Positions 10,447-35,807 of a DNA stretch of 64,000 nt are shown here, piece by piece (the stretch's first letter is position 1; each line of letters starts with the position of its first letter). The DNA lies in assembly GCA_965261395.1 (NCBI GenBank), contig OZ253462.1, positions 288,001 to 352,000 of the forward strand, written 5' to 3'. Position numbers and translations under genes: made by a program. The stretch is from Candidatus Latescibacterota bacterium. GTDB taxonomy: Bacteria > Latescibacterota > UBA2968 > UBA8231. Below the pieces are notes generated by a model. It was not told the origin of the DNA. It ran no database searches and saw nothing but the letters and a program-made list of their open reading frames with translations.

Positions 10447-10450
10447 TGGA

Positions 10451-10903: not shown

Positions 10904-10945
10904 TACCCGACCTCTTTCTGTTGGGGGAGAGCCATACCGCGCACG

Positions 10946-12118: not shown

Positions 12119-12206
12119 GGCCGCATCCTTTGGATTTTGATAAAGAGTGCGGATATAGTACCATTCAGGCTCGCCGCACGCAAACCTTCATCTCCTCGGA
12201 GGAATC

Positions 12207-13295
12207 ATGGCCCAACAACGCTTTCAGCGCACCGCGCCCAGCGACCTGCTCCGCGTCGGAGTGATCATCGGCCCCGGCGGCCACACCTTCAATATCTGGG
12301 GCGAAAAGATGAATCCCCCGCCCGGCGCCCTTCGCACGACGGGCATGATGATGACCTGCGCTTGGTGCCTCGATGCGGGGATGAGCCAGCGTTTTACGGA
12401 AAAGTACCCAGAGGTCCGCATGGTCGCCGACCCTCGGGACATGATCGGCCAAATCGACGGGGTCTATATCGACGACATCAACGCGATTTCGCTCTACCCC
12501 CTGTTGGCGCGGCCTTTTCTGGAAGCGGGCATTCCGACTTTTGTCAATCGGCCCTTTGCCACCTCTATGGCCAAGGGAAGGGAGATGGTGGAAACGGCCA
12601 CGCAACACGGCACGGCGCTGTTGACCGCCTCGACGTGGGAATTTTCCGAGAGCGCCGGCGACTTGCGCGCCAAGGCCGCGGACCTGCCCGACATCAAGGG
12701 CTATGTGGCGCACAACTCCATGAGCGACTACTACACTCACGGCCTGCACGGCGTCTGGTACATCCACTCGATTTTGCGCGACGAGATCGCCAAGGGACGG
12801 GGTCGGCTGCGCGCCGCTGCGTACCACACCCCCAATTGGCGGGTCCCCGGCGGGATGATCGCATACGAACACGAGAGTCCGACGCGCCCGTACTACGGGG
12901 CACTGCACATGAGCTCGGGTGCCGACGGCAACGCCTACATGCGGATCTTCGGCGACCACCGAGGCGATGCCGAGGGGCGGATTCCGGGGCGGCCCGGCTA
13001 CTTCATGTACAACGCTTGGAACGCGCTCCAACTCGGCATTCAGGAAATGTTTGAGACCGGCCAGTCGCCGGAGACGGGCGAGCAGCTTTTGGAGAAGCTG
13101 ATGATGTTTCTCCTGCCGTTCTATTCGGCATTGGAGCGCGGCGGCGCGCTAGTGCAGCGAGAGGAATTGGGCGACTGGGAGTTGCCGCCCCCGTCCGCCG
13201 TGCTCATGGAAGACGGCCTGCCGACCGACAGCGCCTTTGCATCTCCCTACACCCAAGCCCAGCTTGAAGAAGCAGCGCAGATGCTGGGTGGGTAA
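12207..13295 (+). CDS. Gfo/Idh/MocA-like oxidoreductase
   Basis: N-terminal RVGVIIG, PFLEAGIPTFVNRPFA, HGLH. Confidence 0.7.
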   Translation: MAQQRFQRTAPSDLLRVGVIIGPGGHTFNIWGEKMNPPPGALRTTGMMMTCAWCLDAGMSQRFTEKYPEVRMVADPRDMIGQIDGVYIDDINAISLYPLLARPFLEAGIPTFVNRPFATSMAKGREMVETATQHGTALLTASTWEFSESAGDLRAKAADLPDIKGYVAHNSMSDYYTHGLHGVWYIHSILRDEIAKGRGRLRAAAYHTPNWRVPGGMIAYEHESPTRPYYGALHMSSGADGNAYMRIFGDHRGDAEGRIPGRPGYFMYNAWNALQLGIQEMFETGQSPETGEQLLEKLMMFLLPFYSALERGGALVQREELGDWELPPPSAVLMEDGLPTDSAFASPYTQAQLEEAAQMLGG

Positions 13296-13315
13296 TTCCA
13301 GCGAAGAATGCATCC

Positions 13316-14863
13316 ATGAACAAGCGCAGACTACCCATCGGCATTCAGACCTTCCGCGAGGTCCGCGAAGATACCTGCTACTACGTCGATAAAACCGCCT
13401 ACATCCGCCGGCTGCTCGACGAGGGTAAGCACTACTTCCTGTCGCGCCCACGGCGCTTTGGCAAGAGCCTATTCTTGGACACGCTCAAGGAAGTGTTCGA
13501 AGGCAACGAACCGCTGTTCGCGGGGCTGGACATTCACGACCGCTGGGATTGGTCGGTGCGTCATCCGGTGCTGCGGCTCGACTTCAGCAGTGGCACCTAC
13601 CAGGGGCCGGACGACTTGCGGAAGGAAGTGGCGGCGCAATTAAACACCTTGGAGGCCGAAGCGGAGATCGTCCCGCGCGACGACGAAGCGCCCGTCCGCT
13701 TCCGCCACTTGATGAAGGTGCTGCACGAGCGCAGCGGTCAGCGCGTTGCGGTGCTGGTCGATGAGTACGACAAGCCGATTCTCGATGCACTGGAAGTACC
13801 GGAGGTCGCCCGCGCCAACCGCGACTTTCTGCGCGGCCTGTATTCGACCGTGAAGTTTGCCGACGCGCACATCCGCTTCACGTTCATCACCGGGGTGAGC
13901 AAGTTTTCCAAGGTCAGCCTGTTTTCCGGCCTCAACAACCTCACCGATATCACCCTCGAACCCGAATACTCGGCCCTCTGCGGCTATACCGACGCCGATC
14001 TAGACGCCGTGTTCGCCCCGGAGTTGCCCGGCTTAGACCGGGACCAGATCCGCGACTGGTACAACGGTTATAGCTGGCTCGGCGACGAGAAGGTGTACAA
14101 CCCTTTTGACATCCTCCTGCTGTTTCGCCGCCGCCGATTCGCCGCCTATTGGTTTGAAACCGGCACTCCGACGTTTCTGATCGAAACGCTGTTCAAGCGC
14201 CGCGTCAGTTCCCTAGCACTCGATGAGATGGTCGGCAGCGACGAACTACTATCGACTTTTGATGTCGATGACATCGCAACCGAGGCACTGCTGTTCCAGA
14301 CCGGCTACCTGACGATAACCGACGAGGAAGACGTTGGCGGCGAGCCCGTCTATCGCTTGGGCTATCCCAACCGGGAGGTACGGCAGAGCCTGAACCGCAG
14401 CCTGCTGCGCTACTTGGTGCGCGATTCAACGCGGCAGATGGCCAACAGCGTGCAACTCTACCGGCTGCTGGAGGCTAACGACTTCGCCGGGCTGGAGACC
14501 CTGTTCCACGCCTTTTTCGCCAGCATTCCCTACGAGTGGTATTCCAACAACGACATCGCTAATTACGAGGGCTACTACGCCAGCGTGTTCTACTCCTATT
14601 TCGCGGGGCTGGGGCTGGACATCACAGTGGAGGACAGCAGCAGCCACGGACGCTTAGACATGGCGGTTCTATTCAATGGCAACATCTATCTATTTGAGTT
14701 CAAGGTGGTCGAGATGGCGTCTGCGGGTGCGGCGATGGCGCAGTTGCAGGAGCGGCGCTACGCGGACAAGTACCGCGCCTTGGGCCAGCCGATTTACCTG
14801 ATTGGCGTGGAGTTCAGCAAGGATGAGCACAACCTAGCGGCGTTTGAGGTGGAACGCGCCTGA
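13316..14863 (+). CDS. AAA-ATPase-like plus PD-(D/E)XK nuclease protein
   Basis: LPIGIQTF, YYVDKT, SRPRRFGKSL Walker A, VLVDEYDKP, C-terminal GRLDM...IYLFEFK. Confidence 0.9.
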   Translation: MNKRRLPIGIQTFREVREDTCYYVDKTAYIRRLLDEGKHYFLSRPRRFGKSLFLDTLKEVFEGNEPLFAGLDIHDRWDWSVRHPVLRLDFSSGTYQGPDDLRKEVAAQLNTLEAEAEIVPRDDEAPVRFRHLMKVLHERSGQRVAVLVDEYDKPILDALEVPEVARANRDFLRGLYSTVKFADAHIRFTFITGVSKFSKVSLFSGLNNLTDITLEPEYSALCGYTDADLDAVFAPELPGLDRDQIRDWYNGYSWLGDEKVYNPFDILLLFRRRRFAAYWFETGTPTFLIETLFKRRVSSLALDEMVGSDELLSTFDVDDIATEALLFQTGYLTITDEEDVGGEPVYRLGYPNREVRQSLNRSLLRYLVRDSTRQMANSVQLYRLLEANDFAGLETLFHAFFASIPYEWYSNNDIANYEGYYASVFYSYFAGLGLDITVEDSSSHGRLDMAVLFNGNIYLFEFKVVEMASAGAAMAQLQERRYADKYRALGQPIYLIGVEFSKDEHNLAAFEVERA

Positions 14864-14870
14864 TATAGAT

Positions 14871-15818
14871 ATGCTGAACGAACTGCGCAAAATCCGCTAC
14901 GCCCGCTTCCGCCTAGAGATGACCGCAGCTAGCCAATTGCGGTTGCCTCCCTACAAGGGATCCACCTTTAGAGGGGCCTTTGGCCATACCTTCAAACAGC
15001 TAGTCTGTGTCAAGCGGGATCTGGACTGTTCCACCTGTCTGATCAGCGACCGGTGCGTGTATTACTATGTCTTCGAGACCCCGTCCAATAGTGAGGGAGA
15101 GAAGGACAGTCGCGGATATACCTTTGCGCCGCATCCTTTTGTGATTGAACCGCCCGAGGAAACGCGGGAAATCTACGAGCCGGGAGCCGAATTGCGGGTC
15201 GGACTGGTTTTGGTGGGGCGTGCCTTGGACTACCTGCCCTACTTCATCTACGCCTTTGAGGAAATGGGGCAGCGAGGGTTAGGGGCCGGGCGCGGCAAAG
15301 CTGCTTTGCAGCGAGTTATTGCCCTCGGTCCTGAGCCTAGCGACGATAGGTGCATCTATCAGACCGGTACTGGGCAACTGGAGCAGGACTATCCGGTCGG
15401 CGTTGGTGCGCCTGACACCGAGGCCGTTGGAACGCGGCTCCGGCTGCGGCTGCACACGCCGCTGCGGCTCAAGAACGAGGGGCGCTATACTCGCCAGCTT
15501 GACTTTTCTCTATTGGTGCGATCCTTGTTGCGGCGCGCTTCGGATCTGGCCCGCTTTCACTGCGGGGCTGAGCTGGACCTAGACTATCGGCAGTGGATTG
15601 AGCGGGCAGCCGGGGTATCGGCGGCGACGACACTGCGCTGGCACGACTGGGAGCGGTATTCGCAACGGCAGGATCGGAGAATGAAGTTAGGTGGCTTGGT
15701 CGGCGAAGTGGAATTCGCTGGTGAGTGGCAACCCTTCATGCCACTGTTGCGGCTGGGCGCGGATCTACACGTGGGCAAGGGGACGGGGTTTGGACTAGGA
15801 CGCTACGAGATTTTGTAA
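14871..15818 (+). CDS. cas6: CRISPR pre-crRNA endoribonuclease Cas6
   Basis: GSTFRGAFG, C-x(5)-CxxC-x(4)-C, WHDWERYSQRQ, C-terminal G-loop HVGKGTGFGLGRY. Confidence 0.92.
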   Translation: MLNELRKIRYARFRLEMTAASQLRLPPYKGSTFRGAFGHTFKQLVCVKRDLDCSTCLISDRCVYYYVFETPSNSEGEKDSRGYTFAPHPFVIEPPEETREIYEPGAELRVGLVLVGRALDYLPYFIYAFEEMGQRGLGAGRGKAALQRVIALGPEPSDDRCIYQTGTGQLEQDYPVGVGAPDTEAVGTRLRLRLHTPLRLKNEGRYTRQLDFSLLVRSLLRRASDLARFHCGAELDLDYRQWIERAAGVSAATTLRWHDWERYSQRQDRRMKLGGLVGEVEFAGEWQPFMPLLRLGADLHVGKGTGFGLGRYEIL

Positions 15819-15835
15819 AGGAGCAGGATGAAGAC

Positions 15836-17524
15836 ATGAAACACAAACTAATCGCTGTGATCGGCAACACACCGCAAGTTATGACAGAGACTTTCTGGGC
15901 ATTGCGTTTCCAACTCCATGTGCCCATTGATGAAGTATTTGTGATGACGACAACTATGGGTAAAGCAACCTGCCAGCAACGCCTTTTGGACGAAGGCCGA
16001 TTTGCAAAGATGTTGTCGGACTACGATATCGACCCCGATACGGCCAAGTTCGACGCCGATCATATCCGTGTATTTAAAGATGCCGAGGGCAATTTTTTAG
16101 ACGATATCCGCACCTCTGATGATAATCGCCTAGCCAGGAATCAACTTTTCCGCTGGATTGAGGATTGGACCCAGAAGGATCATGTCGCTTTACACTGCTC
16201 GCTTGCAGGCGGACGTAAGTCAATGGGATACTTGCTCGGTGCTGCTATTCAATTTTTTGGCCGCCCACAAGATCGCCTGTATCATGCGCTGGTTACACCG
16301 CCAGAGATTGAAATGAATCGCGATTTTTTCTTTCCACCTGTTCGTGAAACGCAAATCCCCACGTCAGACGGGCAACACATTTCTACTGCTGATGTGCGTA
16401 TTGAGTTGGCAGAGTTACCCTATGTATCGGTAAGAGATATATCCGTATTTGGCGATGAAAGCTACGACCGAATTCTACAGAGAACACAAGAAGAGGTGAG
16501 GCGTATTCCACGTCTAAGAGCAGAAAACAAGCGATTGAGAGAAACATCGAGTAATGCCGGTGGATTGATCGGAAACAGTGCTGCTATGCGGAAAACCAAA
16601 GAACAGATTCGGCAAGCTGCTGATGCAGATGATGCAACCGTATTGCTCTTGGGTGAAACGGGAACGGGAAAAGAACGCGCAGGTGAAGAACTGCATGAGC
16701 AGAGCACGAGAAAAGATCGACCATTCATACCGATTAACTGTAGTGCATTCCCGGATACACTTTTAGAGGCAGAGCTATTCGGTGCGACACGAGGTACTTA
16801 TACCGGACAAGCCGGGCCGCGTAAGGGTGCGTTTCGCATGGCCGAAGGCGGTATCCTTTTTCTCGATGAAATAGGAGAATTATCACGTGATGGGCAGGCG
16901 AGGCTGTTGCGCGTATTACAAGAAAAGAAAATGCGCGCGGTTGGCAGCGATGAACCGGAGAAAGACATTGATGTACGCATTGTTGCGGCGACCAATCGCG
17001 ACTTAGAATCCATGGTTCGAGAAGGGGCTTTCCGAGAGGACCTGTTGTATCGCCTCAATGCTTTGACCATTTACATGCCACCGTTGCGAGAACTACGCGA
17101 AGATATACCGGAGCTAATCGACCTGTTTTGTGAACAGTTTAATGAAAAATACAAACGCAATGTTGTGGGCTTTGATGCCTCAGCTATAGACGCTATGTGC
17201 CGCTATACCTGGCCGGGTAACGTGCGCGAGCTTGAAAATGAAGTTCAGCGTATCGTCATTGCCGCGCCTCCGGGTGCATTTCGAGTACACAAGGAAAACT
17301 TAGCCAAGCATATTATTGAATCGACAGATTTAGACACGGGTAGTGGTACGCTCAAAGAACAAGTGGCACAGTTTGAGAAGCAAAAAATTGAGGAAGCGTT
17401 GGCGCAAACTCAGGGCGAAAGAGGATCTGCCGCAGAGATACTGGGTATCGACCCTACAACGCTGGGTAGAAAAGCTGAAAAGTATGGCTTATCTCTAAAA
17501 AAGAGTCATAAGGATCGTGAGTGA
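15836..17524 (+). CDS. CARF (NE0113/Sso2081-like) domain fused to sigma54 enhancer-binding AAA+ domain and Fis-type HTH
   Basis: N-term GNTPQVMTET and CSLAGGRKSMG CARF motifs; coiled-coil LRAENKRLR; GETGTGKE; ELFG..GTYTGQ; LFLDEIGE; AATNRDL; FREDLLYRLN; WPGNVRELEN; AAEILGI HTH. Confidence 0.9.
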   Translation: MKHKLIAVIGNTPQVMTETFWALRFQLHVPIDEVFVMTTTMGKATCQQRLLDEGRFAKMLSDYDIDPDTAKFDADHIRVFKDAEGNFLDDIRTSDDNRLARNQLFRWIEDWTQKDHVALHCSLAGGRKSMGYLLGAAIQFFGRPQDRLYHALVTPPEIEMNRDFFFPPVRETQIPTSDGQHISTADVRIELAELPYVSVRDISVFGDESYDRILQRTQEEVRRIPRLRAENKRLRETSSNAGGLIGNSAAMRKTKEQIRQAADADDATVLLLGETGTGKERAGEELHEQSTRKDRPFIPINCSAFPDTLLEAELFGATRGTYTGQAGPRKGAFRMAEGGILFLDEIGELSRDGQARLLRVLQEKKMRAVGSDEPEKDIDVRIVAATNRDLESMVREGAFREDLLYRLNALTIYMPPLRELREDIPELIDLFCEQFNEKYKRNVVGFDASAIDAMCRYTWPGNVRELENEVQRIVIAAPPGAFRVHKENLAKHIIESTDLDTGSGTLKEQVAQFEKQKIEEALAQTQGERGSAAEILGIDPTTLGRKAEKYGLSLKKSHKDRE

Positions 17525-17528
17525 ATGG

Positions 17529-17562
17529 CTGCAACCTTGCAGGGATTTCTGCAGAATTGCAT
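17529..17562. promoter_or_regulatory. Tandem palindromic upstream activator sequences (TGCA-N4-TGCA x2)
   Basis: CTGCAACCTTGCAG (17529-17542) and CTGCAGAATTGCAT (17549-17562), 20 bp apart, about 130-150 bp upstream of the predicted sigma54 start. Confidence 0.65.
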
Positions 17563-17608
17563 GACTGAACATGTTGTCGTCCATTTCCTGTTTCAGGAAA
17601 ACATCGCA

Positions 17609-17621
17609 CAACCTATTGTTT
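17609..17621. promoter_or_regulatory. IHF-like binding site
   Basis: CAACCTATTGTTT versus consensus YAANNNNTTGATW (one mismatch), between the UAS pair and the promoter. Confidence 0.45.
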
Positions 17622-17660
17622 TTCTTGATCTTTGAGAAAATTCGAAGGTTTTTTTGTGTT

Positions 17661-17675
17661 TGGCACGGGGATTGC
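17661..17675 (+). promoter_or_regulatory. Sigma54 (-24/-12) promoter
   Basis: TGGCACGGGGATTGC = TGGCAC-N5-TTGC with correct GG-N10-GC spacing; directly downstream of a bEBP gene and upstream of a GGAGG RBS. Confidence 0.85.
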
Positions 17676-17740
17676 GACTGTATAAGCAAAAGGTGAACAG
17701 TTTCAGTAAATCCGCAGCAAACATTAAATGGAGGAACAAC

Positions 17741-18091
17741 ATGAACACTCTAATCAATCAGGGGGATGAGCAATATTATTCTCAGGCCGGTTTCTGGAAT
17801 AAGTTGCGCAACTTCGCACGTACCGCGGGTCGGGAAGTCGTCGAGCATGCCCTGTCGCTCTACTACACCGCACAGGATCCTAACACACCGGCCTGGGCCA
17901 AGACGGTTATCTACGGAGTGTTGGGGTACTTCATCCTGCCGGTCGATCTAATTCCCGACCTGATCCCAGTCGTCGGCTTCAGCGACGATTTGGCTGCGTT
18001 TGTCGCCGCACTCGCTACCGTGGGGATCCATGTGACGCCTGAGATTAAAAACCGCGCCAAGAAGAAAGCAGCCGAGTGGTTTGGTAAGTGA
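17741..18091 (+). CDS. DUF1232/YkvA family small membrane protein
   Basis: TPAWAK..IYGVLGYFILPVDLIPDLIPVVGFSDD signature; GGAGG RBS. Confidence 0.9.
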   Translation: MNTLINQGDEQYYSQAGFWNKLRNFARTAGREVVEHALSLYYTAQDPNTPAWAKTVIYGVLGYFILPVDLIPDLIPVVGFSDDLAAFVAALATVGIHVTPEIKNRAKKKAAEWFGK

Positions 18092-18206
18092 GCAATGCAA
18101 GCAGAAGAGTTTTTAAGCATATTTATGAGTTTGGGTTGGCTCTGTACGTGGGCTAAGAGACGGGTTTGGGCTGGGATGCTACGGGATTTTATACAGGAGA
18201 AGGTTG

Positions 18207-20540
18207 ATGGTATCAAGAGACGCCCTAGTTGTCGGGGCCTTGCTGCACGATATAGGCAAATTTGAATTCAGGACATCGGACCGACGTACGCGCCACACCA
18301 CCTACGGGGATTTTTTTGTAGGCAAGTATCTGAGTCGTTTCCGCTGCTTGGAACCGATTCGGGAGGAGGTTCGCCGGTTGGTCGCCCATCACCACGATAG
18401 TGAGTTGGGTGATCCCTTTCTGCGGGAGGCCGACCATCTAGCGGCGGCGGATCGGCAGGTGGACGGCAGTCCCGAGACCCTGCGGTCGCTGGTGAGTATC
18501 CTGACCGCCGTGAACATTGGGAAGGGATCCTCACCACAGGATGTGCATCGGTATGCGCCGGGGCCGGTGGATTTTGCCAACCCCTTTCCCGAACACGTAT
18601 CAGGGGTCACGCCCGTCGAGTGGAAGCCCGACCGGGACCAAGCGCGAGACGAGCACGCCCGCGCTTGGGAGCAATTTTGCGCCGAGATCGGCACAATGCC
18701 CGATGGCGAGTTGGCGAGTTGGATTGAGACGTTCTTGGCGGTGGCTCGCAAGCATCTGAGTCGCGTGGCCTCGGCTGCCTACAAATCGCATCCAGATATT
18801 TCGCTCTACGATCACGCCCGCTCGGTGGCCGCCATTGCGGTGTGCCTACACGAGGCACATCAGCAAGCGGAGCCTTTCCTATTGATTCAGGGGGATATAT
18901 CGGGCGTTCAGTCCTTTCTCTATAAACTGGCTAGCCCAGCCGAAGAGGGAGGGACGAAAAATACCGCCAAGCGTTTACGGGGACGGTCGCTATTTCTAGT
19001 GCTACTAGCCGAGACCGTAGCACGTTATTACTTGCGTAAATTGAATTTGCCTCCGACCAACCTGCTGTACTGTGGCGGGGGGCACTTTTCGATCCTTGCG
19101 CCCCATACTGACGAGCTGAAAACCAAGCTGGCCGAGGCCGAAGAGCAGGTCAACCGCTGGTTGATCGACCAGCACCGGGGCGATCTGGCACTAGTGAGCG
19201 CAGCCACCTCGGCCGATAAGGAGTTGCTGGCCAATTTCCCTCGTTTGATGCAGCAATCGGGCTACGAGCTGGGCCGGGCCAAGCGGCAGAAATTCCGCTC
19301 CGTACTGGATGAGCGACTGTTCGCGTTGCCGGACTATGACCAGACCATGGACGTCTGCCCGGTATGCCAAGCTGATTTCGTCAAAGGCTCCGGGAAGACC
19401 TGTATGACCTGTAAACAACATGTGGAGACCGGGAGCCAAATCGTCCGGGCAGAGTTCTTGGTGCGGTTTGAAGGGGAAAATTTGGACGGGGAATTCGCCC
19501 AATTAGGTTTTGCTTGGGAATTGGCTGCCGACTGGAAAGAGGTTGTCCAGCTAGTAGGGGAAACCCCAGCCGAGCGCGTACATGTGGAACGGCTCAACCG
19601 CAGTGATTTCCTGACTCAGGCCGGCGCGGCCTTGGGTACGCGACATAGCCTCAGCTTCGGGTTCCGGCCACTCGGCCAGTACGCCCCCATTGACGAGCAA
19701 GAGAAGGGGCCGCTGGACTTTGAACACTTGGCCCAAATCAATAGTGAAAAATACCCGCTATTGGGAGTGGTACGCCTCGATGTCGATGCGCTGGGCGCAG
19801 TATTCGCTTCGGGGTTGGGGGAACAGCGATCTCTATCGCGCACAGCCACTTTGAGCCGCGAATTGGAGACCTTCTTCTCTGGCTATGTCAACACCTTGGC
19901 CAAAGATCATTATATGTACATCACCTACGCCGGAGGCGACGACCTGTTCGCCGTAGGCTCTTGGATCAACGCCCTTGAATTCAGTCGCGCCTTGCGGCGG
20001 GACTTTGGTCAGTTCAGCGGTGGCAATCCCAATCTGACCTTTTCCGGCGGTCTGTTTTTTTGCAAGCCGGATTTCCCCATCGGACGGGCTGCCGAAGCCG
20101 CTGGCAAACTGGAGAAGCGGGCCAAGGATTTCCCAGACAAGAATGCCGCCTGCCTGTTTGACGAAGAGGTCTCTTGGGAACGGCTCGACAAGTTGCTCGC
20201 CTTTGGCGACGAACTACTGTACTTGGTGACCGAAGCGGACCCAAACAACCGCTTGCCCCGCTCGTTTGTGCATCGTCTGTTGAGCTTGGGAGCCGAGCGC
20301 CGGTTGGCCCAAGAAGAAGGAAAATTAAAAGCCGAAATAAAAACTCAAATACAGCTCAAATATCTCGTAGCCCGACGCGGGGCCACCAGCAAGGCGATCA
20401 GCGACAATCAGGAGATGGAGGCAGACCGACGCAGAATAGGTGCCTTGGGACGACTGGTCAACGAGCCGGAATTGATGCGCCAGATCGCCGTACCTGCATC
20501 ATACGTACTGTACAAGACGCGAAACCTCAACACAGAGTAG
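18207..20540 (+). CDS. cas10: Type III-A Cas10/Csm1
   Basis: LLHDIGK HD motif, DISLYDH, GDISGVQ, CPVC/CMTC zinc finger, YAGGDDL palm motif (GGDD at 19932-19943). Confidence 0.97.
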   Translation: MVSRDALVVGALLHDIGKFEFRTSDRRTRHTTYGDFFVGKYLSRFRCLEPIREEVRRLVAHHHDSELGDPFLREADHLAAADRQVDGSPETLRSLVSILTAVNIGKGSSPQDVHRYAPGPVDFANPFPEHVSGVTPVEWKPDRDQARDEHARAWEQFCAEIGTMPDGELASWIETFLAVARKHLSRVASAAYKSHPDISLYDHARSVAAIAVCLHEAHQQAEPFLLIQGDISGVQSFLYKLASPAEEGGTKNTAKRLRGRSLFLVLLAETVARYYLRKLNLPPTNLLYCGGGHFSILAPHTDELKTKLAEAEEQVNRWLIDQHRGDLALVSAATSADKELLANFPRLMQQSGYELGRAKRQKFRSVLDERLFALPDYDQTMDVCPVCQADFVKGSGKTCMTCKQHVETGSQIVRAEFLVRFEGENLDGEFAQLGFAWELAADWKEVVQLVGETPAERVHVERLNRSDFLTQAGAALGTRHSLSFGFRPLGQYAPIDEQEKGPLDFEHLAQINSEKYPLLGVVRLDVDALGAVFASGLGEQRSLSRTATLSRELETFFSGYVNTLAKDHYMYITYAGGDDLFAVGSWINALEFSRALRRDFGQFSGGNPNLTFSGGLFFCKPDFPIGRAAEAAGKLEKRAKDFPDKNAACLFDEEVSWERLDKLLAFGDELLYLVTEADPNNRLPRSFVHRLLSLGAERRLAQEEGKLKAEIKTQIQLKYLVARRGATSKAISDNQEMEADRRRIGALGRLVNEPELMRQIAVPASYVLYKTRNLNTE

Positions 20541-20549
20541 GAGACCATC

Positions 20550-21008
20550 ATGGCTAACGAACACAGAGGAAGTGGGGGTGGAGGAGCCGACCGTCGGAGG
20601 GACCAGACCACCAGGGCTAACAAACAGCCCATTAATTTGGGCACCATTACTCCCCAGGAACTGAACCGCCGGGGTGAAGAGTTGGGCAAGGAACTGGCAA
20701 GGAACATTAAGGCCAACCAGATCCGCAATATCTACGGTGCGGTCCAGCACATTCGCGTCCGCGCGAGTCGGCCCCAACCCGATACCGAAGATATCAATCG
20801 CCGCCTGATCTTCCTCAAGCCAAAACTGGCCTATGCCAGTGGTCGGCAAAATAATTTGAGGGGCTTACGGGATGTATTGGTGGAGGCGATTGATAGCGTA
20901 GTACGAAGCGAAGACCCCCAAAAAGCGCAAAAAGCGCGGGATAACTTTTTCATCCTGATGGAATCTATCGTGGCCTACCACAAATTCTACGGCGGCAAAG
21001 ATTCGTAA
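20550..21008 (+). CDS. csm2: Type III-A small subunit Csm2
   Basis: NQIRNIY, LKPKLAYASGR, ESIVAYHKF. Confidence 0.95.
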   Translation: MANEHRGSGGGGADRRRDQTTRANKQPINLGTITPQELNRRGEELGKELARNIKANQIRNIYGAVQHIRVRASRPQPDTEDINRRLIFLKPKLAYASGRQNNLRGLRDVLVEAIDSVVRSEDPQKAQKARDNFFILMESIVAYHKFYGGKDS

Positions 21009-21030
21009 ACCATAGGAGAACAGTACCATT

Positions 21031-21852
21031 ATGGCTCAATTTATTGGCAATATCATTATGCGCGGCAAAATCGAGTGCCTCACCGGTCTGCACATTGGGG
21101 CGGGCAAGGACACTGCCGAGATCGGCGGAGTCGATAGCCCGGTAGTGCGCGACCCCCATAGCCGCCGGCCCTATATCCCTGGCTCTTCCCTCAAAGGCAA
21201 GATGCGTTCCATGCTGGAGTTCGCTACGGGCAAAGTGAAGGATGGCAAGGTGCATACTTGTAACGAGGCCCGCTGCGAGGTGTGTCGGCCTTTTGGGTCG
21301 TCGGCCGCAGATGCGCGCAAATGCGGTCCCACGCGGCTGTTGGTAAGGGACGCCTATCCCGACGAGCAGACCCAAAGCATGTGGGAGAATCTGAGTACCG
21401 ACTTACTCTACGCGGAGATGAAATCGGAAAACTTTTTGGATCGCATCACTTCGGCGGCCAATCCCCGTTTCATCGAGCGGGTGGTCAAGGGATCGTGCTT
21501 CAATTTGGAAATGATCTATGGAGTCTATCAGGTGGACGGCGTCAACGACCTCGACTTTTTCGCCCATGTAGTGACCGCGCTGCGCCTGCTTGAAGACGGC
21601 ACCTTGGGCGGCAACGGCAGCCGAGGCTACGGCCAGATACGCCTGAAGCTGGCCGACCCTGTTTTCTTAAGTGGGCAAGACTACTGCGAAGGTAGCGATG
21701 CCTGGAAACAAGCCCGTCAGTGGCCAGCCGACGAAGCCATTGTGCGGGGCATGGGTGACTTCTCGTTGAACCGAGAGGATGCTACCTGCCAATCATGGGA
21801 TGAGATAATGAAGTCGCCAGAGGACGAGGTGGGCAAAGAGGGGCATGGATGA
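21031..21852 (+). CDS. csm3: Type III-A backbone RAMP Csm3
   Basis: TGLHIG, IGGVDSPVVRDP (catalytic Asp present), PYIPGSSLKGKMRS, LGGNGSRGYG. Confidence 0.95.
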   Translation: MAQFIGNIIMRGKIECLTGLHIGAGKDTAEIGGVDSPVVRDPHSRRPYIPGSSLKGKMRSMLEFATGKVKDGKVHTCNEARCEVCRPFGSSAADARKCGPTRLLVRDAYPDEQTQSMWENLSTDLLYAEMKSENFLDRITSAANPRFIERVVKGSCFNLEMIYGVYQVDGVNDLDFFAHVVTALRLLEDGTLGGNGSRGYGQIRLKLADPVFLSGQDYCEGSDAWKQARQWPADEAIVRGMGDFSLNREDATCQSWDEIMKSPEDEVGKEGHG

Positions 21853-22814
21853 AAGCGATCTATCTGCAATCCCGAGGGGCCTATCGCAACGAGCTGCATT
21901 CGGACACCCTATTCGGACTGATTTGCTGGGCGATCCGTCAGGTCTTTTCGGAGGCGAGGTTGGTGGAGTTGCTAAAAGCCTTTTATGCTGGCCAGCCCCC
22001 CTTCCTGCTTAGCTCAGCTTTCCCCTGCGCCAAAGACGGCACCGCCGTCTGGAAGCCCTTTTTGCCTCGTCCGTTGCTTCCACCTCCGGCGCCTGTGGAA
22101 GATCTGAGCCCCGAAGAAGCTCAGCGGCTCAAACGGTACAAGCGGCTCCGCTATATTCCCGCCGATCACTTCAATCAATTTTTGCAGGGCGACTATTCGG
22201 AGGGTTCGTATTATGAGTCCGATGTCTGGGAAAAAACTACGGTGCCGATTCCCCGGCGTACTGACCGCTTGCATGGCACCATTGATCGATTGAGCGGCAC
22301 TACCGATGGAGAGGGCACACTGTTCTCCGAGCCCGAATACCGGACGGACGGACTCTACTTCTTGCTCGACGGGGAAGAAGCCGAACTAGTGGAAAACGCG
22401 CTCCGTTTTCTGGAGGATTTCGGCTGGGGTGGAGGCAATAGCGTGGGCTATGGCCACTTTGCTGCGACCGTAGGTGAAAGCCCGCTCGCCGTCGCCGTCT
22501 CTGCGCCGGATCGCTTTATCACCCTGTCCCTGTACCATCCTCGATCCGACGAACTCGCGCATTTCAAAACTGGGGAAGCGTGGTACGAGTTGGTGGTTCG
22601 CAAGGGCAAGGTGGGCGGCCACTTCCTCCAAACGGGCGACTTTTGGAAGCGCTCGGTATTGATGTTTGCTCCCGGCTCGACCTTCCCAGCGATGGCGGAA
22701 AAGCAAGTGTACGGACGCAATCCCATTGTAAAGGGGCGGAAGGACGGGCTACCCTTCGACGTGCAGCAATTCGGCTATGCCCTTGCCGTGGGCATGAAAA
22801 CGGCCAGAGAGTAG
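21849..22814 (+). CDS. csm4: Type III-A RAMP Csm4
   Basis: HSDTLFG, LSSAFP, GWGGGNSVGYGHF, TLSLYHP, MFAPGSTF. Confidence 0.93.
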   Translation: MKAIYLQSRGAYRNELHSDTLFGLICWAIRQVFSEARLVELLKAFYAGQPPFLLSSAFPCAKDGTAVWKPFLPRPLLPPPAPVEDLSPEEAQRLKRYKRLRYIPADHFNQFLQGDYSEGSYYESDVWEKTTVPIPRRTDRLHGTIDRLSGTTDGEGTLFSEPEYRTDGLYFLLDGEEAELVENALRFLEDFGWGGGNSVGYGHFAATVGESPLAVAVSAPDRFITLSLYHPRSDELAHFKTGEAWYELVVRKGKVGGHFLQTGDFWKRSVLMFAPGSTFPAMAEKQVYGRNPIVKGRKDGLPFDVQQFGYALAVGMKTARE

Positions 22815-22819
22815 AAATT

Positions 22820-24562
22820 ATGGAACGAAGAGTGCAGTGTCTGTCGCCGGTACACATTGGCACGGGTAAGGAACTAGAACCTTTCGACTATATCGTGGAT
22901 GGCCAACGCTATATTCGCGTCCACTTGGATGCAGTCCTCGAACGGATGACGACCGAACAAGTGGACGATCTGGCTGCCTGGGTGAGCGAGCGGGCTGACC
23001 AGATGGTAGAACTGGGAAGGAAGCAAAGCGATGATATCCGGCGGGAGATGCAGCTATCGAACTTCCCCGGCGCTGATGTCGCGTTACGGGAGGCTCTTCG
23101 AACGGACTCAGCCCTAGCTCGCTACCACGGCAATAAGGGATTTGATCGCAATTTGCAGGTGCGAGAGCAGGTCAAAGATGCCGATGAGACGCCTCTCATT
23201 CCGGGCAGTTCGCTCAAGGGTGCTCTGCGTACGGCCCTCGCTTTTGCCGCTTTGGAGGAAATGGAACTGGCCGAGCGGGAGGCGTTGAGACAGTCGCTTG
23301 AACGACGACTGAACGAGAGAGGCCCTCGTCTGCAAGAACGTATCGGCCAAGAGATAGAACAGGCCGTCTTCCGCTGTGGGAAGGAGCAGAGGGGGCGCAC
23401 TAGCTATGGAGACATCCACTACGACTTGATGAGGGCAGTCTCCGTCTCGGACACGTACGATGCCCAAGCGGAATTGATCGTGCCGCAGATATACACCTTT
23501 GTCGAGTCGCGCACCCGGGAGGGAAATACCAGACTCGCCGCCCAAGCGCCGCTTATCGTCGAAGCGCACGCACCGGGCAATATCTTCAGTCTGCGTCTGC
23601 GGATTGACGGTGGTCTCCTGCGGGCGATTAGTCAGAATGGTCGCAGAGGCGAGTGGATCAACTTTGAGCAACGGGTGCAGCGGGCCTTTGGCTCTGAGGT
23701 GGCGCGGCTGTTGCCGGGAGCATCGGACGAGCAAGTGGAGCAGGCCGTGGTAGGCCGGCTCGAAGCCGCGGCGCGGAGCTTTGCCAAGGCAATCGTGTCG
23801 GCTGAACAGGGCTGGGAGGAAGCACACGGGCACAGTTCCCGCGATCTAAAGGACTTTTACAATCGGCTAGACGACCTGATAGGAAAGGGATTGGTGCCGC
23901 TGCGGTTGGGCTGGGGCAGTCACTTTATGGCCACTACTTTGTTGCTGGCGCTCAAAGAGGATGCGGGCTGGCGTCCTATACTGGAAAGGTGCTTCCGGGC
24001 GTTTGATATAGGCGTTCCTCCAGGACGACATAGAGATAGGGGCAGAGATTCGGAGCGCCAAATTGAGCTCGACGACTTCCCCCGCTCCCGTCGGCTGGTT
24101 GCGGCCGGAAGGAGGCCTGTAGCCCCCTTGGGCTGGATCGCATTAGTGCCTACAGTGGAAGAGTTGCCCGGACCGCTGGTGGAAAAGGAGCGGCTGCTCG
24201 CCCGAACTCAGGAGAGCGAACCTAGGCGAGGGGAAAGGCCACAGGCGGACAGATATAGAGATGGGCGCGGCGGGCGCAGCGAGCCGGGACCGGCTCCACG
24301 CCCCGAACGACCTCTCCCGCAGATCAAGCTTCCGAAGCCTGCCTCGAAACCGCCGCCCCGCCAAGGGTCTCGGCCGGGCGACCGAGTCAATGTGGAAATC
24401 GTGGCCAACGACAACGCTCAGGTTACGGTAAAAGTGCTGGACGGTCAGGGCGAGGAGGTGCGGTTCCGGCAGCCTTACTATCCGGGCCGACCTGGAGAAA
24501 AGAGAAAGATGAAGGTCAGAGCAGTGGACTCCCAAGGCAAGATCACGCAGGTGGCCCCTTGA
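22820..24562 (+). CDS. csm5: Type III-A RAMP Csm5 with C-terminal extension
   Basis: LSPVHIGTG, IPGSSLKGALRTA, LRLGWGS, PLGW; ATG at 22820 (the ORF track start is too far upstream). Confidence 0.92.
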   Translation: MERRVQCLSPVHIGTGKELEPFDYIVDGQRYIRVHLDAVLERMTTEQVDDLAAWVSERADQMVELGRKQSDDIRREMQLSNFPGADVALREALRTDSALARYHGNKGFDRNLQVREQVKDADETPLIPGSSLKGALRTALAFAALEEMELAEREALRQSLERRLNERGPRLQERIGQEIEQAVFRCGKEQRGRTSYGDIHYDLMRAVSVSDTYDAQAELIVPQIYTFVESRTREGNTRLAAQAPLIVEAHAPGNIFSLRLRIDGGLLRAISQNGRRGEWINFEQRVQRAFGSEVARLLPGASDEQVEQAVVGRLEAAARSFAKAIVSAEQGWEEAHGHSSRDLKDFYNRLDDLIGKGLVPLRLGWGSHFMATTLLLALKEDAGWRPILERCFRAFDIGVPPGRHRDRGRDSERQIELDDFPRSRRLVAAGRRPVAPLGWIALVPTVEELPGPLVEKERLLARTQESEPRRGERPQADRYRDGRGGRSEPGPAPRPERPLPQIKLPKPASKPPPRQGSRPGDRVNVEIVANDNAQVTVKVLDGQGEEVRFRQPYYPGRPGEKRKMKVRAVDSQGKITQVAP

Positions 24563-24579
24563 ACGGACAAAGGAAGACA

Positions 24580-24732
24580 ATGGATTATCAGCATATCATC
24601 ACCATTGAACCTGGCAAGCGCAGTGGTACGCCGTGTATTCGCGGCATGAGGATTACCGTCTATGATGTGCTTGACTATCTCGCCTCGGATATGTCCGTCG
24701 AAGAGATGAGGACGTCGGTACCACAACGCTAA
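24580..24732 (+). pseudogene. Truncated DUF433 (antitoxin-like) gene
   Basis: Translates MDYQHIITIEPGKRSGTPCIRGMRITVYDVLDYLASDMSVEEMRTSVPQR*. This is the DUF433 N-terminus without the usual C-terminal helices. AGGA RBS. Confidence 0.75.
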
Positions 24733-24813
24733 TCGAGTATCGGTATCCAACAGCAGACCTGATCGGTAGAGGGTTAAATCGAATATACACCGATCAATGA
24801 TAGGAGACTTATC

Positions 24814-25950
24814 ATGCGTTTCGTTCTGTCAACCGTTGGCACAAGCATCCTGACAAATCTCATTGATAACAGCAATCCTGACGAATCTATCTGGCGGAAT
24901 AGATTGCGGGATTCGGCGAATCTCAAACAGGGCGAACTAGAACCGGAAACTGAGACGGCGATCAATACACTTTCTGACCGGGCACTCGAAAAACTGATGC
25001 AAGATGATGCCGAAATCAACCGCCGAATTAGTGCCGAGTTGAACGGCATTTACGGTATCTACGGAAGTCAATTGCCTAAAAACAGCCCCGATGAGCACTA
25101 TCTCATCTGCACCGACACCGCACAGGGGCAGAAGACGGGCGAACTGATTGAGGATTTCCTTGGAGGGATGGGATTTAGGGTAGGAATCGTCACGCCTCCT
25201 CGGCTTTCGACACAAGATCCAGAATCCTTCACCACAGGCACGAAGGAACTCATTAAGTGGCTGGAGGACAACGTGCCGTGGCGACGTGATAGTGGCTATC
25301 GCGTGATTTTCAATCTGGTTGGCGGCTTCAAAAGTCTGCAAGGTTACATGAATACTTTCGGTGCATTTTACGCTGATGAGGTGATATACATCTTTGAGGC
25401 ACCAACCGCTGACTTAATCAAGATTCCGCGCCTGCCAATTCAGATTGACACCACCGTGGTTGAAAACCATCGGATGCAATTTGCATTGATGGATGCTGGA
25501 AAACTGTATCCGATTGAGGAACTCGAAGGTATCCCAGAAACGCTGCTTGAATTCGTAGAAGATAATGGCGTGAATTATGGGGGATTATCGGCGTGGGGAC
25601 AGTTGATCTGGAACCGAACGAAATCGGATCTATTGATAGATGCGTTATTGCCATTTCCACGATTGACATACGAGCAAGACTTCATCAACGACTGCGAGAC
25701 TTTGCACAACAAGCAACGCATTGATCTTCAAGAGACTTTAGCGAAGATCGCCGCCGTGCTCGAAGATAGCAGCGGCAACATAACACTGCTTAATAAGAGA
25801 ATTTCTGGACTGAACTTTGAAAAACTTCAAAATCTTGATATCTATACATTCCGTATTACTCTTGCCTACCGCGTCAGTTGCAAGGTTTCTAGAGATACAT
25901 TAATCCTTCGGCGCTATGGCGTTCATGACTACGTGTACCAAAATCCATAG
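24814..25950 (+). CDS. CARF (APE2256/Sso1393-like) - RelE-like effector, Cami1-like
   Basis: STVGTSILTN, SAELNG, TDT..G, NLVGGFKS, YIFE CARF motifs; C-terminal FEKLQ..IYTFRIT..YRV..LILRRYGVHD RelE-like domain. Confidence 0.85.
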   Translation: MRFVLSTVGTSILTNLIDNSNPDESIWRNRLRDSANLKQGELEPETETAINTLSDRALEKLMQDDAEINRRISAELNGIYGIYGSQLPKNSPDEHYLICTDTAQGQKTGELIEDFLGGMGFRVGIVTPPRLSTQDPESFTTGTKELIKWLEDNVPWRRDSGYRVIFNLVGGFKSLQGYMNTFGAFYADEVIYIFEAPTADLIKIPRLPIQIDTTVVENHRMQFALMDAGKLYPIEELEGIPETLLEFVEDNGVNYGGLSAWGQLIWNRTKSDLLIDALLPFPRLTYEQDFINDCETLHNKQRIDLQETLAKIAAVLEDSSGNITLLNKRISGLNFEKLQNLDIYTFRITLAYRVSCKVSRDTLILRRYGVHDYVYQNP

Positions 25951-26026
25951 GAAACATGGGTTGAACTCCAGGAGGACGCCCAGCTACGCGCCTATCGGGC
26001 ACTCGAATTTTCCAAGGGGTATCGCC

Positions 26027-27058
26027 ATGCCCACCCTGTACGTCACAGAACCCAGATCGGTCGTCCGGCGTTCGGTCGGCTCCGTCGTGGTAACGCTCAA
26101 CGAGGACCCCGACGGGCCGGGGCCACTGCCCGAACGCCAGCGGCGCTTGCTCGAAGTCGAGCCACATCGGCTGGAACTGATCGCCCTGGTAGGCCGCGTT
26201 CATATCACCGCAGACGCGCTCCAACTTTGCTTGGAGCAGGGCATTGCGGTCGCTTGGTTGCAGGCGAATGGGAATTTTATGGGCCGTCTCGTGCCGGAGT
26301 TGTCGCGCACGGCCGATCTGCGTTTGGCGCAGTTCCGCATGGCCGACGACGAGCCGCAGGCGCTGGCACTGGCTCAGACCTTTGTCGCAGCCAAGCTCCA
26401 CAATGCGGTTGGCCTGCTGACGGCTTTGCGCTCCAATCGCCGCAGCCAGCCTGCTTTGGGACGGGCCATCGGGGAACTCAGGGCCATGGCCGATACCGTG
26501 GCGCAGGCGACTAGCCGGGAGGTGCTACTGGGCTATGAGGGCGATGCGGCCCGGCGCTACTTTGCGGGGCTGCGGCTCGGTTTCACGGGTGCCATCGGCT
26601 TTGACGGCCGTGCTCGTCGGCCACCGCCGGACCCGGCCAATGCCTTGCTGTCGTTCGGCTATGTGTTGCTGGCTAATGTACTGGCGAGTCTGCTGGAGGC
26701 CTGCGGCTTCGATCCCTACTTGGGCTTTATGCACACAGTCCGTTCTGGGCGGCCCAGTTTGGCACTCGACCTTTTGGAGGAATTGCGGCATCCGGTCGTG
26801 GATCGCTTTGTGCTGCGGGTGTGCAATCGGGGACAATTGCGTCCCGAGCATTTTGAGACTGATGCCGAACGGGGCGGTGTGCGCCTCACCCGTGCAGGTA
26901 TGCGAATTTTCTTTCGCACTTGGGAAGCCTTTATGGACGCTCCACTGCCGGGGATTGGCACAGAGATGTCACCAGAAGAATTGCTTCGCCGTCAGGTTGA
27001 TCGTCTAGCGGCCCACGTGCGAGATCAAGCGCCATACCAACCCTTGCTTCTACGCTGA
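26027..27058 (+). CDS. cas1: CRISPR integrase Cas1
   Basis: LLGYEGDAARRYF, RRPPPDPANALLSFGY, DPYLGFMH, SLALDLLEELR. Confidence 0.96.
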   Translation: MPTLYVTEPRSVVRRSVGSVVVTLNEDPDGPGPLPERQRRLLEVEPHRLELIALVGRVHITADALQLCLEQGIAVAWLQANGNFMGRLVPELSRTADLRLAQFRMADDEPQALALAQTFVAAKLHNAVGLLTALRSNRRSQPALGRAIGELRAMADTVAQATSREVLLGYEGDAARRYFAGLRLGFTGAIGFDGRARRPPPDPANALLSFGYVLLANVLASLLEACGFDPYLGFMHTVRSGRPSLALDLLEELRHPVVDRFVLRVCNRGQLRPEHFETDAERGGVRLTRAGMRIFFRTWEAFMDAPLPGIGTEMSPEELLRRQVDRLAAHVRDQAPYQPLLLR

Positions 27059-27070
27059 GGAGGCTTGCCT

Positions 27071-27358
27071 ATGTCCCGCTTTGTTGTGTGCTACGATATA
27101 GCCGACAATAAACGCCGCTATAAGGTGGCCGCCTGCCTAGATGGGTATGGCGACCGCGTACAGGGCAGCGTATTCGAGTTGCGGGTCGAGCGCACCCTTC
27201 TCGACCGATGCTTAGACGAGGTATCCGGCCTGATCGATGCGGCTGAGGACAGCGTGGTCGTCTATCGCCTTTGCGCGGCCTGCGAGAAAGAGCGGGTTTA
27301 TTGGGGCGTAGGCGAACAGGTTGCCCATATTGGCGAGGAAGATGTATTTATCGCATGA
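27071..27358 (+). CDS. cas2: CRISPR-associated Cas2
   Basis: VVCYDIADNKRR, GDRVQGSVFE, DSVVVYRLC. Confidence 0.95.
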   Translation: MSRFVVCYDIADNKRRYKVAACLDGYGDRVQGSVFELRVERTLLDRCLDEVSGLIDAAEDSVVVYRLCAACEKERVYWGVGEQVAHIGEEDVFIA

Positions 27359-35798: not shown

Positions 35799-35807
35799 GG
35801 ATACATC

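Follow-up and report, generated by a model that had tools for sequence, protein, structure and literature searches.

The window analysed here, a stretch of 64,000 nt from a Candidatus Latescibacterota bacterium (contig OZ253462.1, positions 288,001 to 352,000), contained a type III-A CRISPR-Cas island in which the gene of a bacterial enhancer-binding protein (bEBP) with a CARF sensor domain was followed by a sigma-54 promoter, a gene for a small DUF1232 membrane protein, and the cas10-csm operon. We somewhat favoured the reading that these elements form a sigma-54 switch gated by cyclic oligoadenylate (cOA), with DUF1232 as its payload and with the csm, CARF-RelE, and cas1-cas2 genes boosted here as well. 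Control of this promoter by the bEBP was considered very likely, cOA made by Cas10 was the probable ligand, and the chances that read-through boosts the csm genes meaningfully were evenly balanced. The gene order and common orientation given by an earlier, sequence-only reading of this DNA were reproduced by the open reading frames, Pfam, NCBIfam, and PADLOC (Table 1).

The bEBP was composed of a CARF domain of the NE0113 ('CARF5') kind, an AAA+ sigma-54 interaction domain, an AAA lid, and a Fis-type helix-turn-helix (HTH), and these assignments agreed among Pfam, NCBIfam, and PADLOC. The CARF domain was matched by PF09623 (Cas_NE0113, 7.4e-36), by TIGR02584 (7.7e-50, over the cut-off), and by the PADLOC model CARF5--CARF (3.6e-68), as well as by the PADLOC models 'CARF5--CARF_TM' and 'CARF5--CARF_ADA'. 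Its motifs GNTPQ and SLAGGRKSMG were invariant in 18 of 18 aligned homologues. The AAA+ domain (PF00158, 2e-61) had intact Walker A (GETGTGK) and Walker B (LFLDE) motifs. The PADLOC model RtcR_PspF2 covered the C-terminal two-thirds of the protein, which is the AAA-HTH part only, and the whole architecture was covered by no model of the PADLOC library. In a collection of 5.8 billion proteins, PF09623 and PF00158 were combined in 103 of the 120 best clusters listed, none of which was named by any source.

The CARF domain of the bEBP had no sequence match in the PDB. Its AlphaFold2 (AF2) model (pLDDT 86.6) was best matched by the fold of the Cad1 CARF domain in the apo form and in the forms bound to cyclic tetraadenylate (cA4) and cyclic hexaadenylate (cA6), with E values of 2.9e-4 to 7.8e-4, TM scores by target of 0.62-0.64, and ~21% identity. 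The ring nucleases Sis0455 and Sso2081 were the next matches, and cA4-bound Cam1 was weaker. In the CARF-RelE protein encoded downstream, the CARF part matched Pfam Cas_APE2256 (1.6e-30) and PDB 3qyf, 7pq2, and 8phb, of which we take 3qyf to be Sso1393. Judged by sequence and model, both CARF domains would be of cOA-binding types. The sequence-only reading had called both of them Sso2081- or Sso1393-like; this held for CARF-RelE and failed for the bEBP, which had the Cas_NE0113/TIGR02584 'CARF5' domain, with the Cad1 CARF domain as the nearest solved fold.

The sigma-54 promoter was found as previously proposed, and TGGCACGGGGATTGC was the sole mismatch-free match to the core in the window. 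When one mismatch was allowed, five matches were found against 5.0 expected, and the weight therefore rests on the perfect match and its context only. The core was located 137 nt past the bEBP stop codon and 66 nt ahead of the DUF1232 ATG, which was preceded by a GGAGG ribosome site. The palindromes TGCAACCTTGCA (17530) and TGCAGAATTGCA (17550) were spaced by 20 bp and lay at positions -131 and -111 relative to the -24 element. The 6.55-Mb genome contained 23 perfect cores and 37 TGCA-N4-TGCA palindromes, and a core with a palindrome no more than 220 nt upstream occurred only here. This uniqueness persisted when the cores were relaxed to 8 of 10 matches and two palindromes were required. Because core and palindromes were paired only once in this genome, the bEBP appears to have a one-promoter regulon. 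Sigma-54 itself was encoded in the genome (rpoN).

Relatives were collected by a scan of one genome per species, which gave 16 loci, all from Latescibacterota. A full-length bEBP homologue was present in 11 relatives, with an identity of 79-83% in six of them and of 46-48% in the remaining five; loci L014-L016 (matches of 15-48 aa only) were left out, and L012 and L013 were two pieces of one broken locus. The window and these 11 relatives made up 12 full-length loci from one phylum, and because they are kin, the counts given below show conservation and not independent recurrence. The bEBP fusion was present in 13 of 168 phylum genomes, including the genome of the window and that of the broken locus. 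A metagenome scan for further CARF-domain loci gave no relative, as all 114 pattern matches were rejected by tblastn.

A perfect TGGCAC-N5-TTGC was located 137-280 nt past the bEBP stop codon in 12 of the 12 full-length loci, and five of them (L005, L006, L007, L009, and L011) contained a second copy of the cassette. The resulting 17 cassettes were alike over ~200 bp and shared palindromes near -132 and -111, an A/T tract, and TTGGCACGC-N3-TTGCATA, and some had further palindromes near -182 and -201. Palindrome pairs in like positions preceded most of the 17 related promoters, against a background of 0.07 relaxed sites per 260 nt. The earlier pairing of bEBP and promoter was thus strengthened by a cassette that was conserved in every full-length locus, occurred once in this genome, and was accompanied by rpoN.

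The promoter core region also varied among natural strains. In the DNA contigs of X6, X10, and X5, 108 other letters took the place of 124 nt of the window (17593-17718), and the replaced stretch spanned the A/T tract, the hairpin, the sigma-54 core, and the start of the 5' untranslated region. Natural strains therefore carry alternative promoter core regions.

The genes behind the cassette were arranged in several ways. In the window, L001, and L008, the order was cas6, bEBP, cassette, and DUF1232, with the next gene 73-112 nt on and no hairpin in between, followed by effector genes, which in L008 were preceded by an EcsC-family gene. In the five loci with two cassettes, the order was bEBP, cassette, cas6, cassette, DUF1232, a spacer of 91-816 nt, and effector genes, with an insertion sequence (IS) transposase as the next gene past DUF1232 in L009. 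Locus L010 had bEBP, cassette, cas6, DUF1232, CARF-RelE (70% identical to that of the window), and cas10, with overlaps or gaps of at most 76 nt. Locus L004 contained no DUF1232 and had bEBP, cassette, cas6, and, after 13 nt, cas10, csm2-5, and a CARF gene. The contig of L003 ended 275 nt past cas6. The cas6 gene stood directly behind the cassette in eight loci.

At least four kinds of type III module were found behind the cassettes, with neighbour genes called by Pfam and tblastn and subtype labels being a reading of the Pfam hits. These were a III-A module (window and L004), a III-B module with Cmr2_N, Cmr3, and Cmr5 (L005 and L006), a module with a small Cas10 and several RAMPs (L009-L011; III-D-like among the labels used), and a CSD-RAMP-type module with an 845-875-aa protein that opened with a cold-shock domain and went on with RAMP similarity (L001, L007, and L008). 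Because the same cassette stood ahead of differing modules while the bEBPs were ~46-83% identical, the sensor-promoter unit appears to travel between type III systems. A tentative wider reading, to which we gave somewhat less than even chances, is that of a portable, enhancer-dependent type III arm, in which a cOA-gated sigma-54 activator and a ~200-bp cassette move between modules, DUF1232 is made only after target recognition, and the whole system is amplified or gated where the gene packing allows. An immune effector would then be deployed by transcription and not by allostery.

DUF1232 stood behind a cassette in 9 of the 12 loci and was 68-92% identical among them, while the bEBPs went down to ~46%. 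It was the only copy in the genome of the window. The AF2 model of the protein had a low pLDDT of 66.4 and showed five helices. Residues 51-65 and 79-97 read as hydrophobic and flanked a P-x-D-x-I-P-D motif, and all neighbours in the atlas were DUF1232/YkvA proteins, in agreement with a small two-helix membrane protein. A full-text literature search returned no functional study of DUF1232 and no link between DUF1232 and CARF. We infer that DUF1232 serves as a transcriptionally deployed membrane payload. As a CRISPR-specific gene DUF1232 was rejected, since the Pfam family was present in 80 of the 168 phylum genomes.

In the mechanism that we propose, the bEBP would most likely occupy the paired TGCA-N4-TGCA sites that precede the promoter at 17661 by ~110-130 bp. 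When target RNA meets the Csm complex, Cas10 would make cOA, the CARF domain would bind it, and the ATPase would be freed. The ligand would probably be cA4, which is also the signal for the CARF-RelE protein encoded alongside. The freed ATPase would open the sigma-54 promoter complex, so that the bEBP would activate rather than repress. The first and most consistently kept product would be the membrane payload DUF1232, and the same transcript would most likely continue into cas10-csm5, CARF-RelE, and cas1-cas2. These genes would thereby be boosted above a basal level of expression, for which the conserved cas10 leader is the probable starting point.

The extent of the transcript was evaluated from the spacer, an RNA library, and the relatives. 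No terminator was found between DUF1232 and cas10, as had been noted before: the scan gave none (it listed 9 sites in 14 kb, where shuffled sequences gave 14.0 +/- 3.2), and the 156-nt junction did not fold more stably than shuffled sequences (z = 0.37). Since no terminator lies past DUF1232, the transcript most likely runs on. A contig from an RNA library (run X20, record 12, 710 nt, 37 differences, ~95% identity) covered 17550-18240 and thus ran from the promoter region across DUF1232 into the beginning of cas10. These data are contigs and not reads, a contig proves no single transcript, and DNA is possible in an RNA library; the positions 16006-17508 and several csm bins had no cover, and such holes prove nothing. 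In two relatives, L004 and L010, type III genes followed the promoter with gaps of at most 76 nt, and this tight packing leaves no room for another promoter.

Several observations weighed against the favoured reading. The GAFTGA loop of the bEBP deviated: it was GTYTGQ in the window and GAYTGQ in the six genome loci closest to it, whereas the remaining five loci had a GAFTGA-like loop, and the T at position 4 was kept; from the conservation of the promoters, the GTYTGQ loop may still work. The X20 contig started upstream of the promoter, came from a ~95% relative, and may be DNA carry-over. A hairpin (9-10 bp) with a T7-T8 run ended ~5 nt before the -24 element. Its energy ranged from -10.4 to -11.2 kcal/mol in 8 of the 12 first cassettes and was -7.4 kcal/mol in that of the window, it was weak in L001, L002, and L008, and it was absent from all five second cassettes. 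In the window, one change in an arm was, by our reading, compensated on the opposite arm. This hairpin probably terminates the bEBP transcript and insulates the promoter. The earlier proposal that basal read-through supplies the surveillance complex became doubtful with this hairpin just 5' of the -24 element.

The same side of the balance included the ~110-nt cas10 leader, which was conserved in genome G134 (locus L002), where the csm operon is ~12 kb from the promoter. The cas10, csm3, csm4, and csm5 genes of G134 were 82-91% identical to those of the window, and csm2 was 68% identical. Because the leader was kept so far from the promoter, cas10 probably has its own start signal, which is probably a likelier source of the basal complex than read-through, and the layout of G134 evidently allows the csm operon to be expressed with no such promoter nearby. 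A consensus scan listed no sigma-70 promoter in the cas10 leader of the window. DUF1232 (nine loci), and not cas10, showed the most consistent tie to the promoter, and it was followed by 91-816 nt before the next gene in five of its nine loci. These long spacers shared a conserved block. DUF1232 paralogues at 50-70% identity occurred with no cassette at all and adjoined PhyH-type or other metabolic genes or Rad52/RadC/methylase-HNH regions. In genome G075 (locus L004; 91% complete), the only cas10 found stood behind the promoter, so that the activator on which the whole system relies would itself require a product of that system. Finally, the CARF-RelE family is described in the available part of PMC11229360 as activated by cA4 and as stopping translation, and because translation would be halted, feedback at the protein level would need a lower threshold of the bEBP or an early time window.

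The best-surviving alternative, unlikely in our estimate, is that a cOA-sensing bEBP deploys DUF1232 (and elsewhere an extra Cas6) as its payload only, with read-through being accidental and minor and the csm genes using their own leader promoter. The close tie of DUF1232 to the cassette ahead of differing effector modules, its own cassette in five loci, and its single copy in this genome agree with this, but in L004 no DUF1232 is present and the promoter leads directly into cas6-cas10-csm. The separation of DUF1232 from the effector genes by a long spacer or an IS element in five loci, as well as the cas10 leader conserved far from the promoter in G134, would fit a separate csm promoter, whereas in L010 a single promoter is followed by overlapping cas6, DUF1232, CARF-RelE, and cas10 genes, and in the window, L001, and L008 the gene after DUF1232 is close and no hairpin intervenes. 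The literature search also yielded no DUF1232 function.

A second alternative, which we regarded as quite improbable, is an induction switch, in which the CARF domain senses a signal not made by Cas10, such as 2',3'-cyclic phosphate RNA ends, which have been proposed as the signal of RtcR, or a nucleotide of another system, and turns on a quiet locus under stress or infection. RtcR, the only studied CARF-bEBP, is not driven by cOA according to the available parts of PMC7790460 and PMC9650030, but the CARF domain of the present bEBP was of the CRISPR type and not of the RtcR type, and its fold was nearest to cOA-bound Cad1 and the ring nucleases. The RtcR model NF038308 scored 294 bits, below its cut-off of 650, and covered residues 213-517 only, which is the AAA part. 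The genes rtcB and rtcA were not adjacent to the bEBP gene, which had cas6, DUF1232, and cas10 as its surroundings; no search elsewhere in the genome was made. The terminator-like hairpin would insulate a promoter of a quiet locus, and a sole cas10 behind the promoter, as in L004, creates a start-up problem for a self-made signal, but a second cas10 may have been missed in the incomplete genome G075. The promoter of L002 faced FGE-sulfatase, kinase, and FHA genes and not cas genes, yet the bEBP gene was in or beside a type III locus in 12 of 12 cases. It is highly improbable that the CARF domain mainly damps the response as a ring nuclease or cOA sink, or that the ligand switches the bEBP off, because a sink needs no ATPase, HTH, or promoter cassette, yet all were conserved, and because in known bEBPs the N-terminal sensor holds the ATPase off until the signal comes, even though NCBIfam names the TIGR02584 family 'ring nuclease' and Sis0455 and Sso2081 were among the fold matches. 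The CARF domains of Csm6 and Cami1 are described as degrading their ligand in the available part of 10.64898/2026.10.26.761840.

The favoured reading, a cOA-gated sigma-54 switch, thus retained part of the positive feedback circuit of the sequence-only reading, in which cOA made by Csm was to induce more Csm and its Cami1-like toxin. The bEBP-promoter pair, the lack of a terminator between DUF1232 and cas10, and the arrangements of L004 and L010 spoke for that circuit, whereas basal read-through was doubtful, the family given for the bEBP CARF domain did not hold, and DUF1232, not cas10, was the gene most tied to the promoter.

The effector module was of type III-A, with a Cas10/Csm1 that contained the HD motif at residue 14 and the GGDD motif at residue 576, Csm2-Csm5, Cas6, and an array. 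The Cas10 palm domain occurred in one copy only in the 6.55-Mb genome. The intergenic gaps from cas10 through cas2 were 9, 22, -4, -4, 17, 81, -35, and 6 nt. The CARF-RelE protein was matched by the PADLOC model CARF7--CARF_RelE at 5.8e-128 over residues 2-372 of 378, and its C-terminal 98 aa were assigned to no RelE family by Pfam alone. The bEBP (one NE0113-type match) and CARF-RelE (one APE2256 match) were the only CARF proteins found in the genome. The statement that no Csx1 HEPN gene is present was extended to the whole genome, in which a Csx1_HEPN search was empty while the control was positive in 2 of 14 genomes. A genome search with Cas_Csm6_HEPN was also empty, and since its control matched nowhere, it was uninformative.

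Table 1. Features of the type III-A island in the window (coordinates of the window) and of the conserved block in five relatives (coordinates of each locus).
Feature	Position	Strand	Basis or remark
AAA-ATPase_like + PDDEXK_9 gene	13316-14863	+	Pfam; adjoins cas6 on the upstream side
cas6, crRNA-processing endoribonuclease	14871-15818	+	Pfam CRISPR_Cas6 2.5e-21; PADLOC Cas6 1.5e-110; upstream of the sigma-54 promoter
CARF-sigma54 activator (bEBP), 562 aa	15836-17524	+	Cas_NE0113, Sigma54_activat, AAA_lid, HTH_8
Putative enhancer (upstream activating sequence), palindromes TGCAACCTTGCA + TGCAGAATTGCA	17530-17561	+	Paired TGCA-N4-TGCA sites
A/T-rich tract with 9-bp hairpin and T7 run	17615-17660	+	Ends ~5 nt before the -24 element
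Sigma-54 core TGGCACGGGGATTGC (-24 GG / -12 GC)	17661-17675	+	Only mismatch-free core of the 64 kb
DUF1232/YkvA-family small membrane protein, 116 aa	17741-18091	+	Pfam DUF1232 (PF06803) 3.5e-13; ribosome-binding site GGAGG
DUF1232-cas10 spacer and cas10 leader	18092-18206	+	Terminator scan, fold, comparison with G134
cas10	18204/18207-20540	+	TIGR02578 1.2e-164
csm2	20550-21008	+	Pfam, NCBIfam, PADLOC
csm3	21031-21852	+	Pfam, NCBIfam, PADLOC
csm4	21849-22814	+	Pfam, NCBIfam, PADLOC
csm5	22811-24562	+	Pfam, NCBIfam, PADLOC
DUF433 remnant, 3'-truncated, 50 aa from ATG	24580-24732	+	Pfam profile positions 1-42 of 56
CARF-RelE effector, Cami1 kind, 378 aa	24814-25950	+	PADLOC CARF7--CARF_RelE
cas1	25916-27058	+	Pfam, NCBIfam
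cas2	27065-27358	+	Pfam, NCBIfam
CRISPR array, 62 identical (perfect) 37-nt repeats	27552-32287	+	Repeat search
Conserved block past DUF1232	L005 13655-13740		
Conserved block past DUF1232	L006 13545-13630		
Conserved block past DUF1232	L007 13765-13850		
Conserved block past DUF1232	L009 13767-13830		
Conserved block past DUF1232	L011 13625-13700		

All island genes were on the + strand at ~13.3-32.3 kb and were embedded in metabolic genes, with MR_MLE, PhyH, and ADH families on both sides. Similar pairs of an MR_MLE enolase-type gene and a PhyH dioxygenase gene flanked the island at 9559-12118 and 34665-36659, which may be a sign of insertion into a duplicated or repeated metabolic cluster. 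The G+C content was 0.48 over bEBP/DUF1232 and over CARF-RelE, 0.55-0.59 over csm, and ~0.60 in the left flank, and from this unevenness the island looks assembled from modules. The AAA-ATPase_like/PDDEXK_9 gene was absent from variants, in which X10 and X5 DNA contigs joined 13300 to 14870 with 24 other letters, and it was found at 78-82% identity in L002, L008, and L012. The depth over this gene was very high in the X10 and X5 metagenomes, like that of a multi-copy element, and the gene is probably an insertion outside the circuit. The DUF433 remnant had no partner gene, and the X5 contig diverged at 24707 into other letters; the remnant may be what is left in the operon of a toxin-antitoxin-like pair that was lost.

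Further observations were made in the relatives. The CSD-RAMP modules (L001 12322-19455, L007 13944-21627, and L008 13064-20842) also contained an unassigned ~360-400-aa protein, a short Cas10 of 531-547 aa, and a RAMP protein of 596-801 aa. In L002 (G134), the promoter faced a 10-kb cluster (12035-21596) located between the promoter and the csm operon, with genes for an FGE-sulfatase, ankyrin repeats, a double FGE-sulfatase, a Ser/Thr kinase, DUF4407, FHA, and a 406-aa protein of no assigned family; this cluster could be either an additional payload or a conflict system that was inserted there. Among the DUF1232 paralogues, those at L074 5041-8186, L075 4643-8182, and L077 3705-13310 (47-56% identical to that of the window) were near Rad52/22, RadC, and DNA methylase-HNH genes, in regions that look like prophage or mobile-element DNA, and L077 contained two DUF1232 copies 2.7 kb apart. 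The conserved block in the five long-spacer loci was ~70 nt long with the consensus GAGATGAACCGCGTACCCTATTGCGCTATTTTCAC...ATTGTATCCTGTG. It was not supported as a terminator, as its consensus fold (-5.8 kcal/mol) pairs the T-run itself and a compensatory change was seen in 1 of 12 pairs, and it was unconvincing as a sigma-70 promoter (TTGCGC-17-TATCCT), with a 4-nt spacer deletion in L011.

A full-text literature search on CARF and sigma-54 activators returned papers on RtcR and a 2014 survey of CARF proteins; an earlier listing in classifications or supplements is possible. Predicted transcription factors were set aside in a 2024 census of type III systems, according to the available part of PMC11229360. 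Most of the known outputs of type III systems are enzymes or channels switched directly by the second messenger, and transcriptional outputs have so far been known from archaeal Csa3 and from the sigma-factor relay of CalpL/T/S. If the favoured reading is true, the CARF-sigma-54 activator adds a tightly off, ATP-driven promoter switch to these outputs, and with one cassette per genome and defined enhancer sites its target can, unusually, be read from the DNA. Three questions would become testable, namely whether cOA drives gene expression in bacteria, whether type III systems boost or gate themselves, and which role is played by DUF1232/YkvA, a widespread yet unstudied family. The cassette could double as a compact cOA-responsive reporter.

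Several known systems resemble parts of the present one. In the phage-shock system, the sigma-54 activator PspF controls an operon that begins with pspA, the gene of a small membrane-associated protein. The combination of a sigma-54 activator and a small membrane-associated first product is shared with the present locus (PspF is mentioned in the available part of PMC4012209). However, PspF lacks a sensor domain and is restrained by PspA, whereas no PspA-like domain was present here and DUF1232 is unrelated. The CARF-RelE protein matched Cami1 end to end and had nothing unusual in itself; its position downstream of a sigma-54 promoter was the new element. The bEBP shared the PADLOC label 'CARF5' with Cad1 (a CARF-deaminase effector) and Cam1 (a CARF-TM effector), and its CARF model superposed best on that of Cad1, but its output would be that of a transcription activator and not of an enzyme or membrane domain, and the membrane protein DUF1232 was encoded by a separate gene.

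In CalpL-CalpT-CalpS, a SAVED-Lon protease frees an extracytoplasmic function (ECF) sigma factor on the type III cA4 signal, as described in the available part of PMC11229360, and to that extent a cA4 signal is likewise passed to transcription through an alternative sigma factor. Here, in contrast, the sensor itself would activate the sigma-54 RNA polymerase, and the target promoter was readable from the DNA. According to the available parts of PMC8844856, PMC8699464, and PMC7480081, Csa3 binds cA4 and regulates cas and CRISPR genes in archaea; it resembles the bEBP in that a CARF sensor is fused to a DNA-binding domain and a type III signal is fed into cas expression. In Csa3, the CARF domain is fused directly to a winged HTH, an AAA+ ATPase is lacking, transcription does not depend on sigma-54, and the host is an archaeon. 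The bacterial bEBP instead contained an AAA+ domain, a Fis-type HTH_8, and a CARF domain of the NE0113/'CARF5' family, and its promoter would be of the enhancer-dependent kind with near-zero basal activity. RtcR, the activator of the rtcBA RNA-repair operon, has the same CARF-AAA+-HTH architecture and the same kind of promoter. The 2014 survey predicted sigma-54 activation for RtcR-like CARF proteins, which in the available part of PMC4012209 are linked to Rtc or restriction-modification and not to CRISPR. RtcR has a divergent CARF domain, no CRISPR link, and rtcBA as targets, whereas the bEBP has a CRISPR-type CARF domain and, as its predicted targets, DUF1232 and the cas genes. The bEBP thus combines a Csa3-like logic with an RtcR-like machinery and is a member of neither family.

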